Assembly: GCA_964384945.1 (NCBI GenBank)
Contig: CAYLMK010000004.1
Coordinates: 1-64,000 of the forward strand
Reading direction: 5' to 3'
Length of the DNA: 64,000 bases
From: an uncultured Thermodesulfobacteriota bacterium
GTDB taxonomy: Bacteria > Desulfobacterota > DSWW01
This document shows positions 5,148-40,968 of the stretch, in pieces. The notes beneath the pieces are model-generated. The model was given only the letters and a program-made list of their open reading frames with translations. It had not been told where the DNA came from and searched no databases. Positions within the stretch are counted from its first letter, which is position 1; every line of letters begins with the position of its first letter. A program made the translations under genes and the position numbers.

Positions 5148-6419
5148 TCATGCTTCGGCACTCCCCCCGCCTTTCATGTGCCATCGAGGGCCGCAAGAGG
5201 TGTCCTCGACGACCACGCCCCCTCGCAGGAGTGCGTCACGGATCGCGTCCGCCTCCTGCCATTGCCGGGCCTGCCGGAACCTCTCCCGGAGAGCAAGCAA
5301 CTCCTCGACCAGCGGCGCAACGAAACCGGAAGGGTCTGCCGCACGGGGCCAGAGCTTGACGCCGAGCGAGACGATCATTTCTCTGAGGATCTCCCTCGCC
5401 TGCGAGATGAACTCCCCGCTCTCGATATCCTGGTGCGCCTCCCAGATCGTCCGATCCAACTCGAGAAGGGCGTTGATCGCAGCTCCCGGCTCGTTCGACA
5501 CGAGACCCTTCTCAAAGGCGGCCTCGATTCGGTGAACCTCGTCCCAGAAGGGTTCTTCCCTCGTGCCCGTCGAGACCCGATCGGTCTCGGCAACCGGCGC
5601 CTCCCGCCTCCATCCCGTCCAGAGATCCCCTCCACGCAGGGCATCCAGGGGAACAGGCCGTCCCCCTTCGAAGGACTTCTCGCCTCGGCGGCTGCGCAGG
5701 GTCACCCGGCCGATCCCCTTGATGACCGCCTCCTCCCTTTCGAGGTCGACCAGGCAGGCCGTGTGTTCGTCGAGGCCCAGCACGGAGACATCCTCGGGGA
5801 GGAGAGACTCCAATTCCCGGAACCGCGGCTCTCCCATGTAACAGAAACGGGTGTCGTGGGTTCCTCCTTCGGCGTTGTTCCAGTGAGGGATCACCACGAG
5901 ATTCAAACCGAACCGGCCCAGGAGATCCATCCCCTCCAGCCAGTGAACCGCCTCGCCTACCTTGTAGATCTCATAGACCGGCAGGGTGAAACGACCCACG
6001 GTCAGGGCGGCGGCGCTCGCAGCCACCAGACACCCGCCCTGTTCCACCCTGTTCGCCAGAATCTCCGGAATCGGCGTTTCACGCCACTGACGGACCGCAT
6101 AACTGGGGCTGCCGGGCCCGATGAGTACATAGTCGGCCTGGCGGAGGCAGTGGAAGGCCTGCTCCGCCTCGAACGGGGTCGCCTTCTCGTGAGACTTGAA
6201 GGAAGCGACGGAGATGGGATGTCGCACGTGGTTTCGGAAATACTCGGCGGCCCTCTGCGAGAGATGCTCCACATTGAGCTGGAAGCCGGCCGGCGTATCC
6301 AGGAAGACGGCTCGGGGGGCGTCTCCGATGCCGGCAAGCAAGTCCTTGTGGACCTCGACCATGGTGGCGGTCAGCTCACCCGAGCCCATCAGGGCGATGA
6401 CGCCCTTCTTCGTTGACAT
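5148..6419 (-). CDS. Fusion protein: N-terminal peptidase S51 (dipeptidase E/cyanophycinase-like) domain + C-terminal cysteinyl-tRNA synthetase-like helical domain
   Basis: The start at MSTKKGVIALMGSGE (ATG 6417-6419) fits PepE-like architecture, with ...ADYVLIGPGSPS... and ...LVAASAAALT... at the nucleophile position. The C-terminal ~100 aa (...ADAIRDALLRGGVVVEDTSCGPRW) closely resembles the extreme C-terminus of bacterial CysRS. No HIGH or KMSKS motif is present, so it is not a synthetase. Confidence 0.55.
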   Translation of the reverse strand: MSTKKGVIALMGSGELTATMVEVHKDLLAGIGDAPRAVFLDTPAGFQLNVEHLSQRAAEYFRNHVRHPISVASFKSHEKATPFEAEQAFHCLRQADYVLIGPGSPSYAVRQWRETPIPEILANRVEQGGCLVAASAAALTVGRFTLPVYEIYKVGEAVHWLEGMDLLGRFGLNLVVIPHWNNAEGGTHDTRFCYMGEPRFRELESLLPEDVSVLGLDEHTACLVDLEREEAVIKGIGRVTLRSRRGEKSFEGGRPVPLDALRGGDLWTGWRREAPVAETDRVSTGTREEPFWDEVHRIEAAFEKGLVSNEPGAAINALLELDRTIWEAHQDIESGEFISQAREILREMIVSLGVKLWPRAADPSGFVAPLVEELLALRERFRQARQWQEADAIRDALLRGGVVVEDTSCGPRWHMKGGGSAEA

Positions 6420-6672: not shown

Positions 6673-8007
6673 CTACTTCTTTTTGAAGGCCGTCTTGGGG
6701 AAAAAGCAGACCGGGCACTCCTCGGGCGGCTCTTCCCCGTAGTGAACGTAACCGCACATCCGGCACCGCCAGACGGACCTTCCCTTTTCCTTTCCGGATT
6801 CCAGCTCTTCGGGGTCCATCTCCCGTTGGATCGGAAGATCCTCCAGCGGGGGCATCACCGGTTCGTAGGCGCCCAGGGCAAAGCCTGAGATGATGATTCG
6901 CTGAATCTCGCTGGTCCCCTCGTAGATCTTGAAGAGGCGGCTGTCGCGCAGGAGCTTTTCGACCGGAAACATCTTCGTGTACCCGTAGCCCGCGAAGATT
7001 TGCAGGGCCTCGCTCAAGATCGACTCGGCCGCCTCGGTGGAGTACATCTTGGCCATGGACGCGGTCAGGGTCGGGTCCATGCCCCGGTCCGCCTCCCACG
7101 CCGCCTTCCAGACCAGCAGGCGGGCCGTCTCCACCTTCTGGTACATCTCGGCCAGCTTGAACTGAATGGCCTGGAAGTTGGCGATGGGCTGCCCGAAGGC
7201 ACGTCTCTTCTTCGCGTAATCGATGGCGAACTCCATGGCCGACCGGGATGCGCCGACCGCAAAGGCGCCGATGGCCGGACGGGTACGGCCGAAGGTCTTC
7301 ATGGCAAGCACGAAGCCCTCTCCGGGCGGCGCGAGCACGTTCTCCTTGGGCACCTTCACGTTCTTGAAGTTCAGAGACCCCGTGTTGGATGCCCGTTGGC
7401 CGAGCTTCTGGATGGTCGCGCCCGTCGAGACGCCCTCCCAGCCCCGCTCCACCAGAAAAGCGCAGATTCCCTTGTGCTTGGATTCCGGGTCCACGGTGGC
7501 GAAAACGGACATGTAGTCGGAGATGCCCGCGTTCGTGATCCAGAACTTGGTGCCGTCGAGCACCCAGTGGTCGCCCTCCTCCCTGGCCCGGCACCGGATA
7601 CCGGAGACGTCCGAGCCCATGGTGGGCTCGGAGGTGGCAAAGCAGATGAGCTTGAATTCCTTTGCGATTTTGGGGAGGTACTTTTCCTTCAGGGGCTCGT
7701 TCGAACAGAGAATGAGCGGCTCCATTCCCAGGGAGTTGTCGAAGATCGAGGTCGCCAGCCCCGGACAGGCCGCGGCAAGCTCCTCGGTAACGATGACGCC
7801 GTCGAGCAGCCCGTAGCCCGCCCCCCCGTACCGCACCGGGATGTCCCCGTTCATGATGCCCGCGTCGAAGGCCTTCCGGAGCACGTGCATCGGGGTTTCG
7901 TGCTTTTCGTCGTAGTGCCAGGCGACCGGGAGGATCTCTTTCCGTGCGAATTCGCGGGCCTTTTCCTGCAGCTTCCGTTGCTCGGGAGTGAGGGTGAAAT
8001 CGAGCAT
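6673..8007 (-). CDS. Acyl-CoA dehydrogenase with C-terminal rubredoxin-like domain
   Basis: Full ACAD fold signatures are present (N-terminal MLDFTLTPEQ..., FAD/CoA motifs, catalytic E in YEGTSEIQRIII). Terminal CRMCGY...CPVC is a rubredoxin-type 4-Cys knuckle. The start is taken at the MLDF Met. Confidence 0.85.
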   Translation of the reverse strand: MLDFTLTPEQRKLQEKAREFARKEILPVAWHYDEKHETPMHVLRKAFDAGIMNGDIPVRYGGAGYGLLDGVIVTEELAAACPGLATSIFDNSLGMEPLILCSNEPLKEKYLPKIAKEFKLICFATSEPTMGSDVSGIRCRAREEGDHWVLDGTKFWITNAGISDYMSVFATVDPESKHKGICAFLVERGWEGVSTGATIQKLGQRASNTGSLNFKNVKVPKENVLAPPGEGFVLAMKTFGRTRPAIGAFAVGASRSAMEFAIDYAKKRRAFGQPIANFQAIQFKLAEMYQKVETARLLVWKAAWEADRGMDPTLTASMAKMYSTEAAESILSEALQIFAGYGYTKMFPVEKLLRDSRLFKIYEGTSEIQRIIISGFALGAYEPVMPPLEDLPIQREMDPEELESGKEKGRSVWRCRMCGYVHYGEEPPEECPVCFFPKTAFKKK

Positions 8008-8066
8008 GGGGGACTCCCTGCTTCTCGGGTTGCCTTCGTCCTTCTCCTCCGATGCCGCCATGCGAA

Positions 8067-8093
8067 CTTGCTCCCCGTAACCAGGGGGAGCAA
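8067..8093 (-). terminator. Perfect 10-bp GC-rich stem-loop between the encapsulin stop and the ACAD start
   Basis: CTTGCTCCCC-gtaacca-GGGGAGCAAG. No clear U-tract follows, so it may be a processing or attenuation hairpin rather than an intrinsic terminator. Confidence 0.35.
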
Positions 8094-8127
8094 GGAATCG
8101 GGCTTCCGTCGGTGAGAAAGGAGGACT

Positions 8128-8934
8128 CTACTTCGCCTTCGGGGCCAGGGGCACGTACGCGGCCGGCTCGATGACCCGGAAAGTGAAGCTCTCGGTGACG
8201 AAGAGGGTGACTTCGGTGCTCGTGTGCGACTGGTAGCCCACCGCGAAGTCCTGGCCGATGATCAATTCCAGATCCTGGCCCCGCGTCGACACGAGGAACC
8301 CGCCCTTGGAGGAATGGCTGTAGACGATGGGTCCGCCCAGAAGACCCTGGACATGCTGCTGCAGGGGGAATCCCTCGGCGTAGCTTGCCACCAGCTGCCA
8401 GAGGTCCGGGTTTACGACCAGTGCGTAAGGGCCGCCGATGGAGGCCGCGATCAGGATGCCGACGCCCTGGGAGACGGCCTCGAGGAACCCCGCAGGGGTC
8501 TTTGCGAAGGCGATCGGCTTGTGGCGGCAGGCCTGCTGCATACCGACGATGCAGGCCGGCTCGAATCCGTTGAGGATCGCGTTCTCTTCGAACAAGGCGA
8601 TCTTTCGGGAGGCATCTTCGAGGGACTTGAGTTCGATATCTTTGGCGCCGCGGATGATATTGTCGAGCTCCCAGACATCCAGAACGAAGGAGGCGCGGCA
8701 CTCGACCAGGGGCTGCACCGCGTGGATACCGTACTGGACATCTTCCTTTTTCTGTCCTTTCGGCACCTCGAGGCGTCCGAGCGGAACGGCCGCGTAGTCC
8801 CAGCCCTGGGGCCCCACCACATCGACGAATTTGCGAGCGGACAGATAGGCCGTGAGCACCAGCCTAGCCTGTCGGTCGATCTCCTGCCAGGCTTCGAGCG
8901 TGATCGGTGCGAGGGTTCGCTTCAGAATGTCCAT
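8128..8934 (-). CDS. enc: Family 1 encapsulin nanocompartment shell protein (Linocin_M18-like, HK97 fold), 268 aa
   Basis: MDILKRTLAPITLEAWQEIDRQAR...FVDVVGPQGWDYAAVPLG...FVLDVWELDN...GPYALVVNPDLWQ...LIIGQDFAVGYQSHTSTEVTLFVTESFTFRVIEPAAYVPL is collinear with Thermotoga/Myxococcus encapsulins (MEFLKRSFAPLT...FTFQVVNPEA). The 614-aa ORF in the track is an upstream read-through, and the true ATG is at 8932-8934. Confidence 0.85.
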   Translation of the reverse strand: MDILKRTLAPITLEAWQEIDRQARLVLTAYLSARKFVDVVGPQGWDYAAVPLGRLEVPKGQKKEDVQYGIHAVQPLVECRASFVLDVWELDNIIRGAKDIELKSLEDASRKIALFEENAILNGFEPACIVGMQQACRHKPIAFAKTPAGFLEAVSQGVGILIAASIGGPYALVVNPDLWQLVASYAEGFPLQQHVQGLLGGPIVYSHSSKGGFLVSTRGQDLELIIGQDFAVGYQSHTSTEVTLFVTESFTFRVIEPAAYVPLAPKAK

Positions 8935-9060
8935 TCGTCTCTCCTTTCCTCTTTCTTTTTGCATATACTGTTGCTCGGAACATGGGAAAGGGTTCAAAAA
9001 CGTGGTATGAGTGGAAACCGGCACTTCCTTGCCAGCGGGCTCGAACCGGGAGGCGCAAAC

Positions 9061-9948
9061 ATGAGCTACGAGACCATTCTTTACGGGAGAAAGGGAAGGA
9101 TCGGGACGATCACCCTGAACCGGCCCGAGAAGTTCAACACCATACGGCCGCCCATGCCTGCGGAGATCGAATCGGCTCTGGCGGAAGCGAATGCGGACGG
9201 AGAAGTGCGGGTCATCGTCCTGCAGGGAGCGGGCGAGGCCTTTTGCGCCGGCTTCGATTTTTCCGGGGGACTCGAGCACTTCGCCGGCTGGGGCGGGCAG
9301 CCCGACGGCCGGGCCTGGGACCCGGGAAGGGACCTGATGATGGTGGCGAGCCCGTTCACAGGCCCTGTGCCCAAGTTCATGAGCATCTGGAGAAGCCCCA
9401 AGCCGGTGATCGCCAAGGTGCACGGATGGTGCGTGGGCGGCGGCTCGGACATGGCCCTTCTTTCCGACGTGATCATCGCAGCCGAGGACGCAAGATTCGG
9501 CACCCCCTATTCCAGGGTCTGGGGGTGCTACCTGACCGGGATGTGGTTCTACCGCCTGGGGCTGACGAAGACCAAGCTGCTCGCCCTGACCGGGGACAGC
9601 CTGTCCGGCAGGGAGGCGGCCGAGATGGACCTCATCAACATCGCGGTTCCGAGGGACAAGCTCGATGAGGAGGTCGAGTACTGGGCGAACCGGATGGCCC
9701 AGTGCCCCGTCTCCCAGCTCGCGGCCATGAAGCTCTCCGTGAACCAGGCTTTTGACAACATGGGGCTCGCCAACACCCAGCTTGTCGGGTCGATCCTCGA
9801 CGGCTACATGCGGAACACGCCCGAGGCCCTGGAGTTCGTCAAGACGGCCAAGGAGAAGGGAGTGGCGGCAGCCATCGCCGAGAGGGACCGGCCCTTCGGG
9901 GACTACAGCCAGGGGCCTCCCTCCATGAAGCCCGCCCGCGGGAAATAG
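9061..9948 (+). CDS. Enoyl-CoA hydratase/isomerase (crotonase family)
   Basis: ITLNRPEKFN...VLQGAGEAFCAGFDF...AKVHGWCVGGGSDMAL is the canonical crotonase oxyanion-hole region. The ATG at 9061 is the start, divergent from the encapsulin gene. Confidence 0.85.
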   Translation: MSYETILYGRKGRIGTITLNRPEKFNTIRPPMPAEIESALAEANADGEVRVIVLQGAGEAFCAGFDFSGGLEHFAGWGGQPDGRAWDPGRDLMMVASPFTGPVPKFMSIWRSPKPVIAKVHGWCVGGGSDMALLSDVIIAAEDARFGTPYSRVWGCYLTGMWFYRLGLTKTKLLALTGDSLSGREAAEMDLINIAVPRDKLDEEVEYWANRMAQCPVSQLAAMKLSVNQAFDNMGLANTQLVGSILDGYMRNTPEALEFVKTAKEKGVAAAIAERDRPFGDYSQGPPSMKPARGK

Positions 9949-10066
9949 CGGAAGGCGGGGCCCGGCAAACAAACGGGCAGGGTCTTGCGACCGTCCGCGT
10001 CGGCCCCTGCATCAAATGCATTGGGGAATTCATGCAAACACGAAACCTGCGTTGGGAGGTGCAAGG

Positions 10067-10612
10067 ATGCGGCTGACCGCGGGAGACAAGGCAAGGGATT
10101 TCGAAGTGAAGGATCTTTCGGGCAGCAAGGTTTCCCTTGGGGAGTATCGGGGCAAGCGGTTGATGCTGTCTTTTTACCGGTACGCGTCGTGTCCCTTGTG
10201 CAACCTGAGGGTTCACGAACTTGCCGGGCATTACGATTCCATGAAGGAGAAGGGCTTGCTTATGCTCGCCTTTTTCCAGTCGCCGGAGGACAGTATCCGC
10301 CGATACGTGGGCAAGCAGGATCCCCCCTTCAGGATCGTGGCCGATCCGGAACGGAAGGTGTACCGCCTCTACGGGGTCGAGTCCTCATGGGCGGGTTTCC
10401 TGAAGGGATCCCTCCGGGTCTCCTCGATGATCGCTGCCGCAGGTAAGGGCTTTTTCCCCGGCAAGATGGAGGGCGACAAGGCGATGATACCGGCCGATTT
10501 CCTCATCGGCCCGGACCTGATCGTAGAGAGGGCCTACTACGGAGCCGATATCGGGGACCACATGCCTCTGGAGGACATCACGGCCTGGCTGGCGTCTTCG
10601 AAAAGCGAATAG
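10067..10612 (+). CDS. Thioredoxin-fold redoxin (AhpC/TSA-like, CxxC)
   Basis: The DFEVKDLSGSKVSL...SCPLC motif indicates a redoxin. A GGAGG RBS sits 8 nt upstream of the ATG at 10067. Confidence 0.7.
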   Translation: MRLTAGDKARDFEVKDLSGSKVSLGEYRGKRLMLSFYRYASCPLCNLRVHELAGHYDSMKEKGLLMLAFFQSPEDSIRRYVGKQDPPFRIVADPERKVYRLYGVESSWAGFLKGSLRVSSMIAAAGKGFFPGKMEGDKAMIPADFLIGPDLIVERAYYGADIGDHMPLEDITAWLASSKSE

Positions 10613-10619
10613 TGCCGTA

Positions 10620-11684
10620 TCAATCTTCCTCCAGGATTCCGTCCTTGAGTGCCTTCAGGTTGGGAACCGGCATCGGCGAAAGGAAGCCGTTCTCCGGGTT
10701 GAACATCATGCGGTAGGACACCGCCGCATTGCCCTGCCGGCTCATCACGTCCCATCCCCGCACCAGATAAGGGCACTCGTCGTTGAAGCAGATGTACATG
10801 TAGTCGTGTTGCCAGATGTTGAAAGGCGAATCCGGGATCAGCCACTTCTTCATCTTCCGGCCGCAGTGGGGGCAACACAGGGTCCTTTTGACCTCCTCTC
10901 GCTGCGCCCGCATCTGTTCGGCCGTCAGGGTCCGCGCTTCTTCCTGCGGGATGGACGGCCTTCGGATTCTCTTCGGATCCCCGCCCTTCTTCTCGGCATA
11001 GACAGCATAGATCGGATCACTCGGAAGCCCGCTGTCCGCGTACTTGTCATCCTTGGGCCTGGGCTTTCCCTTCGAGGTGAAAACCACCGGCTTCTCGAAT
11101 CGTTCGCCGGCCCCGAAGTAGTCTTCCACCAGCAGGATACGTTCCGGCTCGCTCGATTCCCTCCAGACCTTCACCACCTTTTCCGGAAACATGCGGTTGG
11201 AAAAGATGACCAGGAAAAGCCCCCCCGGCTTGAGTATTCTCGCCACCTCGCGAAACACCTGAAAGGGCTTGATCATGTAGTCCACGGAGGCCGTGTTCAG
11301 GACCACATCGAAGCGGTTGTCTTCAAAGGGCAGGACGGGATCCATGTTCAGGTCGTGCAGTACGATTTCCGTCAGGGCCCGGTTCCTGGAAAGCTCGTTT
11401 TCATTCAGGCCGAGGCCCACGACCTCGTCGGCATCGATGGATTTGGGGATGTGGGAGTCCCACCCGGCCATCAGATCCAGGATGGCCGGCCTCTTTTCCA
11501 CGACAAGCGTCCTGATGAGTCTCTCGACCGTGGCCAGGGCCACCGCGTCGAGGTGTTCCACAAACCGGTCACGGGAATAGAAATGCCTGTCATCGGATTC
11601 GTCGTTCCTGGAGAATCCGTCCCCGCTGTTCAAGAACTCCTCCATGCTGCAGCGAGCATTTTCTTCGAGGTGGGGGCTGTTCAT
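10620..11684 (-). CDS. Class I SAM-dependent methyltransferase with C-terminal zinc-ribbon
   Basis: VLDLMAGWDSH...VVLNTASVDYM...LKPGGLFLV are methyltransferase motifs I-III. The C-terminal CCPHCG...CFNDECPY is a Zn ribbon. The start is at MNSPHLE (ATG 11682-11684). Confidence 0.7.
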   Translation of the reverse strand: MNSPHLEENARCSMEEFLNSGDGFSRNDESDDRHFYSRDRFVEHLDAVALATVERLIRTLVVEKRPAILDLMAGWDSHIPKSIDADEVVGLGLNENELSRNRALTEIVLHDLNMDPVLPFEDNRFDVVLNTASVDYMIKPFQVFREVARILKPGGLFLVIFSNRMFPEKVVKVWRESSEPERILLVEDYFGAGERFEKPVVFTSKGKPRPKDDKYADSGLPSDPIYAVYAEKKGGDPKRIRRPSIPQEEARTLTAEQMRAQREEVKRTLCCPHCGRKMKKWLIPDSPFNIWQHDYMYICFNDECPYLVRGWDVMSRQGNAAVSYRMMFNPENGFLSPMPVPNLKALKDGILEED

Positions 11685-11802
11685 CGATTCCTTCCTTTCT
11701 GTACCACCACGGCGCGTTCCCTTTACCGTGCGTCGGATGCCGAAATCGGGTTGATAACCTGGCCTGCCTCCCCAAGTGGGGAGGGATAATAAAGTCGTAT
11801 AT

Positions 11803-34342: not shown

Positions 34343-34717
34343 CTCCTTTTTCCTTTCTCTGATGCATGGTCGATGCTGATGACCCCTCTCTCGCACAGGA
34401 TTGTTACGACCGTTCACGCAAATCGGTTAAGAAACGACGTTTGCCGAAAAAATGGCTTGTTCTCCACGTCGGAGAGCGGCTTTTTAAGCCTTCATTTCTT
34501 TACAACAAACTATTTTTGATTGTCAACAAAGAACCGTTGTTCTACATCCTTCTAACCCGATGCTGAATCCGATAAAGACGGGCGGCATCGAAACAACCGC
34601 GGCGACGGGGCACGGCCCCTCCCCCGCGCTGAGGCCATTTGCCTTCGATCCGCGATCGTGCTTCTAATGAAGGAGGCTCGACCACCGCAACCACCCCCGG
34701 CCCGAAAGGCGACTCAC

Positions 34718-35668
34718 ATGACGAGCATCCGCGTCTCGGCCGTCCCGTTCAAGGCCGGCCCCGTGCGTTCTTTCAGCGACTTCGCCGACCATGCCGCCCG
34801 GTGCGTGGAGCAGGCCGCGGCCCGGGCCCCGGACTTCCTGGTCTTCCCCGAGCTTTTCACGGCCGAGCTGATGAACTTCTTCGACGGGCGGGACATCGTC
34901 GGGAAATTCGCACGGCTCACGAAATACACAGGGGACTACGTGAGCCTCTTCCGCGGCCTGGCCCGGGACAAGGGCTTCTACATCCTGGCGGGCTCGCACC
35001 TCACGGAATCCGGAGGCAGGTTCTACAACACGGGCCACATGTTCACGCCCGACGGGCAGGTCTGGGAACAAAAGAAGTGCCACCTCGTTCCCCTCGAGAC
35101 CGCCTGGACGACCCCCGGGGACGGGTTGCACGTGTTCGAAACCGAAAAGGTGAAGCTCGGCATCCTGACCTGCTATGACCTCGAGTTTCCGGAATCCGCG
35201 CGCCTGGTGACGCTCAAAGGCGCCGAGCTGCTTCTTTCCCCATCGGCCACCCTGGACGAGCCGGGCTACTGGCGGGTCCGACACTGCGGCCATGCACGCG
35301 CCATCGAAGACCAGGTGTACGTGGTGCATTGCAGCCTGCTGGGAAACGCGGCAGGGATTCCGTTCTGGGGGATGGCGTCGGTCCTGACCCCGTGCGATAC
35401 GGGGTTCCCGGCAAAGGGAATCGCGGCCGAATCCCCGCTGAACGAAGAGGCCGTGATCACGGCCGACCTCGACCTGGCGAGGCTTCACGAACACAGGGAG
35501 CGCGGTACCGTGACCACGCTGAAGGACCGGAGGTGGGATGTGATCGAGGCCCTGCATGCCTTCGAAGGCCGGCAGCCTGAAGGATCCAGGGCGAAAGACG
35601 CGCAGACCGAAGACCACGGGGCAGCAAGATGTGGGCAAATGGCAAGAGGCGCGCAAGGGGAGCCGTGA
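34718..35668 (+). CDS. Carbon-nitrogen hydrolase (nitrilase superfamily)
   Basis: The E-K-C triad context is present (FPELF..., ...KVKLGILTCYDLEFPE...). The start is at MTSIRVSAV. Confidence 0.8.
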   Translation: MTSIRVSAVPFKAGPVRSFSDFADHAARCVEQAAARAPDFLVFPELFTAELMNFFDGRDIVGKFARLTKYTGDYVSLFRGLARDKGFYILAGSHLTESGGRFYNTGHMFTPDGQVWEQKKCHLVPLETAWTTPGDGLHVFETEKVKLGILTCYDLEFPESARLVTLKGAELLLSPSATLDEPGYWRVRHCGHARAIEDQVYVVHCSLLGNAAGIPFWGMASVLTPCDTGFPAKGIAAESPLNEEAVITADLDLARLHEHRERGTVTTLKDRRWDVIEALHAFEGRQPEGSRAKDAQTEDHGAARCGQMARGAQGEP

Positions 35669-40020: not shown

Positions 40021-40968
40021 TCAGGTTGTTTCCTCTCGCCCTTGCCCTTTCGCCTTTCGCCTTCCCGCGCCGGTTCCCGAACCCGTGGCGCCACTCGCGC
40101 GTACCCTGGGCCTCGCAGGCCGCCCCTCAAGCTTCAGCCCCGCGGCCTCGAACAGGGGAAGGACGTAGTCCAGCGCTTCCCGGCCGGCCTCGACCGGGGT
40201 GTCGAGGTAGGTGTAGAGCTCCAGGCAGATATCCCGGTCATAGCCCAGCCTGGCCATCGTCTTGAAGGTCTCCAGAAAGTCGATCCCCCCGCGGCCCGGA
40301 ATCAAGTGGTTGTGAACCCGGCTCGGGGCGATATCATCGAGATGCACGTGGCGGATCCGCGGGAACAAGCTTTCGAAAGATGCGCTCGGGTCCTCTCCCA
40401 GGCAATAGAAATGGCCGATGTCGAAATTCACGCCCAGCGCGGGAGACCGCGCCTCCTCGACAAAGGCCCTGAAATGCCGGTAATTCTCGCCGAGAAGACC
40501 CGGTTCCGGCTCGACAAGCACCTCCACCCCCAGTTCCTCGGCCAGGGAGAGCACCTGTTCCAGCCTCCGATGAAAAAGGGATAGAAACCCCTGCCTCGTC
40601 AGGTTCCGAGGGGGCGTCCCCGTCGGAATCGAGATGTTCCGGCATCCCAGGTACGAGGCCAGCCGCAGGGACCGCAGCGTGTGCGCAATCCGTTCTTCCG
40701 GGGTCTCTTCCGGGGCGCCCTCCCGGGAGGCCGATGGGCCGTCCTCGGTCGAAAAAAGGGTGGAGCAATTCAGGTTGATCACCTTCAGGCCCTCGGCCTC
40801 GATGCATGCGCCGAGCCGGGGCCATTCCGCCTCGCCGAAGTCGGGGGCGTGGGCGTGGGGCCGTTTGCACATGATCTCGATGCCCCGGAAGCCCAGCCGG
40901 CCGATCTCCTCCACGGCCTCGAAGATCGAGTGCCTCTTGAACGCGTTGCTGCTGTAACCCAGGATCAA
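40021..40968 (-). CDS. Sugar-phosphate isomerase/epimerase (xylose-isomerase-like TIM barrel)
   Basis: MILGYSSNAFKRHSIFEAVEEIGRLGFRGIEI... is a typical AP-endonuclease-2 / TIM-barrel start. The last ~35 codons run into a CCTTTCGCC repeat tract. Confidence 0.65.
   Translation of the reverse strand: MILGYSSNAFKRHSIFEAVEEIGRLGFRGIEIMCKRPHAHAPDFGEAEWPRLGACIEAEGLKVINLNCSTLFSTEDGPSASREGAPEETPEERIAHTLRSLRLASYLGCRNISIPTGTPPRNLTRQGFLSLFHRRLEQVLSLAEELGVEVLVEPEPGLLGENYRHFRAFVEEARSPALGVNFDIGHFYCLGEDPSASFESLFPRIRHVHLDDIAPSRVHNHLIPGRGGIDFLETFKTMARLGYDRDICLELYTYLDTPVEAGREALDYVLPLFEAAGLKLEGRPARPRVRASGATGSGTGAGRRKAKGQGREETT

Follow-up and report, generated by a model that had tools for sequence, protein, structure and literature searches.

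Family-1 encapsulin systems are recognised by a cargo gene bearing a targeting peptide (TP) in the shell operon, usually directly upstream of the shell gene; in Myxococcus xanthus, the cargo proteins EncB, EncC and EncD are encoded away from it. The concept that cargo genes may lie outside the core operon is established, and the secondary cargo proteins BfrB and FolB of Mycobacterium are also encoded away from the shell (bioRxiv 10.1101/085266). Hemerythrins are among the cargo proteins with a documented function (bioRxiv 10.1101/085266; PMC8346489). The hemerythrin encapsulin of Streptomyces sp. AA4 was found by experiment to protect from oxidative or nitrosative stress, and encapsulation needs the C-terminal 12 residues (bioRxiv 10.1101/085266). 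The 2021 catalogue holds 45 hemerythrin cargos, 42 of the 45 in Actinobacteria (PMC8346489). Here we compared these systems with a family-1 shell gene on a 64-kb stretch of DNA from an uncultured Thermodesulfobacteriota bacterium (contig CAYLMK010000004.1, positions 1 to 64,000), the whole of which is called the window below. The gene probably encodes an ordinary family-1 (T=1-type) encapsulin of the hemerythrin-cargo class.

The shell gene and the hemerythrins of its close relatives

The gene under study is the following.

8128-8934, minus strand: family-1 encapsulin shell gene, 268 aa, assigned by PF04454 (E=1.1e-79) and 3DKT (E=3.7e-64) and examined by dN/dS

The original prediction had called this 268-aa open reading frame (ORF) a Linocin_M18-type encapsulin, and a profile search bore this out, with Linocin_M18 (PF04454) covering the shell protein along the full profile (positions 1-253 of 253). 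The shell matched 25 solved family-1 shells, the best being the T=1 shell of T. maritima (3DKT, residues 1-262). The two shells belong to the same length class, and the cargo tails are related (GGDLGIRKL in T. maritima, GLGIGSLK in the clade of the window). Unlike the window clade, which pairs with a hemerythrin, T. maritima has the ferritin-like Flp as its cargo, whose gene sits directly upstream of that for the shell.

Comparison of the window shell with its relatives L001, L100, L005 and L007 gave dN/dS values of 0.06-0.08 at dS 0.8-1.2. Across all pairs of shells the ratio was 0.05-0.09 at dS 0.8-1.8, and it was equal whether or not the lineage has its hemerythrin linked to the shell, indicating that the shell is not decaying. 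Judged by these substitution patterns, the gene is intact and under strong purifying selection.

A homologue search placed the window shell in a close group at 88-91% identity, outside which the next relatives fall to 74% and then to 59%; the best shell among the GTDB representatives is 88% identical. In L001-L004 (shell 91%, about 83% nucleotide identity), the order is a divergent enoyl-CoA hydratase (ECH), the shell and an acyl-CoA dehydrogenase-rubredoxin fusion (ACAD-Rd), as in the window, while the redoxin gene of the window is missing. Three other members of the group revealed a hemerythrin beside or near the shell. In L005 (shell 88%) the hemerythrin, of 197 aa and with the tail GLGIGSLKGTT, is encoded upstream on the same strand; in L007, a Thermodesulfobacteriota metagenome-assembled genome (shell 88%), it is likewise 197 aa long, is encoded divergently and has the tail GLGIGSLRGRK. 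L100 (shell 90%, ACAD-Rd 87%) carries, in order, a TP-bearing hemerythrin, a methyltransferase, a 64-aa ORF, the shell, ACAD-Rd, two genes, a Peptidase_S51-like protein with a CysS-like C-terminal domain (S51/CysS_C) and a GNAT protein, the hemerythrin lying 1.8 kb upstream of the shell. L100 is syntenic with the methyltransferase, shell, ACAD-Rd, S51/CysS_C and GNAT genes of the window; since the tblastx output was noisy at the GC content of the window, only long blocks of high identity were taken. This synteny means that the clade includes a window-like locus still keeping its canonical cargo, 1.8 kb upstream of the shell.

The hemerythrins linked to shells of 88-90% identity are 197-202 aa long and end in GLGIGSL[KR]. 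The shell clade thus pairs with TP-bearing hemerythrin cargo in L005, L007 and L100, and all five lineages with 88-91% identical shells are tied to one hemerythrin family; shell relatives at 46-59% identity use EncFtn. Like the hemerythrin-type systems represented by Streptomyces sp. AA4, the window has a T=1-sized Linocin_M18 shell, and its 88-91% clade pairs with a PF01814 protein tailed ..LGIGSLK; by analogy, protection from oxidative or nitrosative stress would be expected. Unlike in those systems, the cargo gene of the window clade is divergent, one gene away or at another locus instead of directly upstream, and the host is not one of the mostly actinobacterial hosts of hemerythrin systems but an anaerobic Thermodesulfobacteriota-like lineage.

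One relative differs upstream of the shell. L004 shares the shell/ACAD-Rd locus with L001, and upstream of about nucleotide 160 (L004 1-207) its sequence is wholly different, probably through an assembly chimera or a strain variant or rearrangement. The ORF found there was rejected as a cargo candidate: it is a 59-aa end fragment of an unrelated ORF on the same strand and has no TP.

Hemerythrin genes away from the shell

Hemerythrin homologues were searched with the L007 hemerythrin as query. One of them, P0126 (197 aa, tail GLGIGSLRGKK), is encoded on contigs L087, L088 and L092, where it is flanked by ArsR, ArsP and Zip genes and a shell gene is missing from the vicinity, and the samples of these contigs (ERZ23486244, ERZ27284328 and ERZ23486235) are the same samples that hold the shell loci L001, L002 and L004. 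Ranked by identity to P0126, the linked hemerythrins follow the order L100, L007, L005, and the distances of their shells from the L001 shell rank alike, which fits P0126 as the partner of the L001-type shell. P0125, P0128, P0129 and P0246 are likewise unlinked hemerythrins, always following a DUF5619 gene. The unlinked hemerythrins of several lineages retain the invariant GLGIGSL tail, and a hemerythrin keeping this tail away from the shell is expected to load in trans still.

The window itself was searched for such a cargo in three ways. Among all ORF tails in the 64 kb there was no plausible TP (a loose tail scan gave four matches, judged spurious); the six reading frames contained no LGIGSL-like motif; and tblastn detected neither a hemerythrin homologue nor any match to the DUF5619, ArsR, ArsP, Zip and ABC-F genes of the unlinked-cargo loci, which places the cargo locus outside the 64 kb. 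The gene upstream of the shell is the divergent ECH instead of a TP-bearing cargo gene, and both the hemerythrin and the TP motif of the hemerythrin-type systems are absent from the window. The scans agree with the original prediction that no canonical cargo lies near the shell and that no neighbour carries a recognisable TP. Of the two explanations offered there, a cargo encoded elsewhere gained support from the variably linked, tagged hemerythrins around the 88-91% shells (L005, L007, L100 and P0126) and is now favoured for the window shell with fair confidence; the other, a fatty-acid or redox nanocompartment, is not supported, the neighbours being untagged and not conserved beside shells outside the closest relatives.

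We therefore consider a hemerythrin-type, stress-protective encapsulin with its cargo gene unlinked from the shell to be the likely identity of this system. The shell would assemble into an icosahedral T=1 compartment and package a hemerythrin-like di-iron protein, about 197 aa long, via a C-terminal GLGIGSL[K/R] TP, and the compartment would protect its anaerobic host, a Thermodesulfobacteriota relative, from oxidative or nitrosative stress, by analogy with the Streptomyces system. The tight hemerythrin-to-shell operon would have been broken up within a shallow clade, the linked hemerythrin presumably being lost through rearrangement in the lineage of the window. The cargo gene of the window genome would then most likely stand at a distant locus, typically behind a DUF5619 gene as in related lineages, and ACAD-Rd, ECH and the AhpC-type redoxin would be unrelated genes that came to lie beside the shell when the locus was rearranged. 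We infer the presence of the hemerythrin in the genome of the window, its loading by the shell and its physiological role. As in the remote-cargo systems of Mycobacterium and M. xanthus, TP-tagged cargo from distant loci would be recruited in trans; unlike there, where a core cargo usually still adjoins the shell, the sole cargo proposed here is the unlinked one.

Several points weigh against this identification. The data span 64 kb, within which the hemerythrin of the window's own genome is not seen, and shell and hemerythrin contigs sharing samples does not prove that they share a genome. Shell and ACAD-Rd have stayed adjacent in three lineages that differ by a dS of about 0.8-0.9, which fits general synteny and is also compatible with a functional link. 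Finally, the survey by Andreas and Giessen contains 90 family-1 systems that fit none of its operon types and have no assignable cargo type (PMC8346489), so that a truly cargo-less shell is possible.

The last of these points, together with 64 kb free of cargo and the use of EncFtn by shells at 46-59% identity, favours the alternative that survives best, namely that the window shell has lost its hemerythrin and is empty or serves another cargo from a distant locus, for instance EncFtn or DyP. We regard this as unlikely, since it sits poorly with the strong purifying selection on the shell, with the ties of all five 88-91% lineages to the same hemerythrin family and with the invariant GLGIGSL tail kept by the unlinked hemerythrins.

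More distant relatives of the hemerythrin were found in a metagenome profile scan. Among the matches listed, they are 55-69% identical and none comes from a sample with the shell of the window. A family-1 shell lies 47-354 bp downstream in 72 of the 80 such loci among the matches listed; the remaining eight are too short to show a shell, five ending 25 bp or less past the hemerythrin match and three at 96-326 bp. The hemerythrin family hence looks like a dedicated encapsulin cargo. Two-gene operons of a TP-bearing hemerythrin followed by a shell are abundant in environmental metagenomes (JGI contigs L111-L190; the same 72 of 80 among the matches listed), compared with no more than 45 hemerythrin cargos in the 2021 catalogue, and some of the hemerythrin tails vary (GLGIGGLK, GLGIGKL).

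The unlinked hemerythrin loci have two further features. Wherever the upstream sequence suffices, the gene directly before the unlinked hemerythrin codes for a small DUF5619 protein (88-98 aa, without a TP), possibly a factor accessory to the cargo. The P0125 lineage alone has a further gene inserted 9 bp after the unlinked hemerythrin (L094 4378-5772); its 464-aa product has a signal-like N-terminus and matches no Pfam family. The DUF5619 genes are located as follows.

L094 3291-3587: DUF5619 gene
L102 and L104 7643-7909: DUF5619 gene
L107 821-1117: DUF5619 gene
L095-L099, L103, L105, L106 and L108-L110: DUF5619 gene also present

A promoter-like element was recognised upstream of the shell, with counterparts in relatives.

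8970-8996, minus strand: promoter-like element upstream of the shell, TGAACCC-N16-CAAC (TTTTTGAACCCTTT-N12-GCAACAGT), conserved in relatives
L100 7858-7883 and 10304-10330: elements of the hemerythrin and shell genes
L007 5793-5818 (minus strand) and 5880-5906: elements of the hemerythrin and shell genes
L094 3666-3691: element of the same set

The shell-upstream element is kept in the window, L001-L003, L007, L100 and L101 despite diverged flanks. The hemerythrin genes carry a similar TGAATCC-N15-CATCTAA, both where they are linked to a shell (L100, L007) and where they are not (L094-L099), and a shared alternative-sigma (ECF-like) promoter may keep the unlinked shell and cargo genes co-regulated. 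The joint pattern TGAAYCC-N15/16-CAWC, drawn after both sets had been seen, has three matches in the window against 0.39 expected, and is treated as a lead only because of this origin. One match is the shell site itself. Of the other two, that at 34564-34589 (plus strand) is intergenic and shortly precedes a gene for a carbon-nitrogen hydrolase (34658-35668); the other, at 40313-40338, falls inside an AP_endonuc_2-family gene and is probably due to chance. We rejected the shared motif as proof of a common regulon, given the post hoc pattern and the intragenic position of one extra match.

Neighbouring genes and the fatty-acid readings

All genes of the originally described layout, a shell with a same-strand ACAD-rubredoxin and a divergent ECH and CxxC redoxin, were found in the window, together with the hairpin.

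6673-8007, minus strand: ACAD (N, M and C domains) with a C-terminal RUBY_RBDX rubredoxin-like domain (PF21349), 444 aa, from Pfam
8067-8094, minus strand: perfect 10-bp hairpin with an 8-nt loop (CUUGCUCCCC / GGGGAGCAAG) between shell and ACAD-Rd, without a U-tract
9061-9948, plus strand, divergent: ECH (Pfam ECH_1), present only in the window and the L001-L003 subclade
10016-10612, plus strand: AhpC/TSA-family CxxC redoxin with a CPLC motif (Pfam AhpC-TSA), beside the shell only in the window
5148-6419, minus strand: syntenic neighbour, Peptidase_S51-like protein whose C-terminal domain resembles the anticodon-binding domain of CysS
10620-11700, minus strand: syntenic neighbour, SAM methyltransferase bearing an Ogr/Delta-like zinc finger at its C-terminus

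Both syntenic neighbours have an odd domain architecture.

ACAD-Rd lies directly downstream of the shell on the same strand. Its start, earlier placed at 8061, was moved to 8007 (MLDFTL...), on which all homologues agree. The top 120 homologues are 71-90% identical and 392-508 aa long (most of them 440-449 aa), and every one combines ACAD with PF21349; the few with a source name come from Desulfobacterales or Deltaproteobacteria. In none of the 120 was a TP-like motif detected at either terminus, nor is there a clade-specific terminal extension, and the tail ...CFFPKTAFKK is unchanged with or without an adjacent shell. Adjacency of shell and ACAD-Rd was limited to the window, L001-L004, L100 and L101, with no co-occurrence beyond these close relatives: ACAD-Rd is absent from the available flanks of 79 genome shell loci (46-59% identity), of 72 metagenome shell loci, and of L005 and L007. 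Conversely, no shell lies within 7 kb of a stand-alone, 75% identical ACAD-Rd on a 380-kb contig (L191), the sole distant homologue with its surroundings examined. Since the methyltransferase, S51/CysS_C and GNAT genes are conserved in order equally well, the adjacency is ordinary local synteny, and ACAD-Rd appears to be a neighbour outside the compartment, not supported as its cargo. The ECH is missing from L100, L005 and L007, and no redoxin homologue was found in L001-L007 or L100, of which L001, L002 and L100 are long enough to show it; as far as these loci tell, the redoxin and the ECH are not conserved neighbours of the shell.

The perfect 10-bp hairpin described between the shell and ACAD genes was found at 8067-8094, and the 88-nt intergenic segment folds with z=-3.4. 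Terminator prediction did not score the hairpin as a terminator. Its sequence is not kept in L001 or L100, where only weaker, imperfect stems occur at the aligned position, and it has no Rfam match, so that a conserved regulatory RNA was rejected. The hairpin may terminate transcription in part, or it may be an element of RNA stability.

ACAD-Rd might still serve the compartment from outside, its rubredoxin domain exchanging electrons with the di-iron cargo inside, a role comparable to that of electron-transfer proteins seen beside some Flp or IMEF operons. Besides the adjacency kept in three lineages, this is helped by the hairpin, whose lack of a U-tract makes read-through co-transcription of shell and ACAD-Rd possible, and by the description of non-targeted associated components in other systems (bioRxiv 10.1101/085266). 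However, the unrelated methyltransferase, S51/CysS_C and GNAT genes show the same degree of synteny, the ACAD-Rd family greatly exceeds the shell in both spread and conservation, with the one distant copy examined standing alone, and the sister shells L005 and L007 have no ACAD-Rd, which together make such a partnership quite improbable. Slightly less probable again is a combined scheme, in which the split operon would belong to one stress regulon through the shared alternative-sigma-type promoter and a non-encapsulated ACAD-Rd would link electrons from fatty-acid oxidation to the encapsulated di-iron centre.

The proposal that ACAD-Rd, or else the ECH or the CxxC redoxin, is itself a non-canonical cargo of a fatty-acid or redox nanocompartment is barely credible: canonical cargo is missing from the window, as this proposal needs, and ACAD-Rd lies immediately downstream of the shell on the same strand in the window, L001-L004 and L100, but the 120 homologues carry no TP-like motif and have alike termini with or without an adjacent shell, the adjacency is missing in L005 and L007 (shell 88%) and in about 150 more distant shell loci (about 154 distant shell loci without ACAD-Rd in all), the redoxin accompanies the shell in no relative long enough to show it, and the ECH is not in L100. 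An FAD tetramer needing acyl-CoA and an external electron acceptor also fits poorly into a T=1 shell, whose pores measure about 5 angstroms.

Meaning for encapsulin families

A tempting false lead is thereby removed, as a fatty-acid or rubredoxin nanocompartment is not supported at this locus. The analysis also illustrates that orphan family-1 shells can be given a cargo via shells of about 90% identity instead of via their immediate neighbours. For encapsulin catalogues, the results indicate that hemerythrin-type systems are frequent among Desulfobacterota-like bacteria from anaerobic sediments and bioreactors, and that they include one clade in which the core cargo gene would be unlinked from the shell yet retain its TP.

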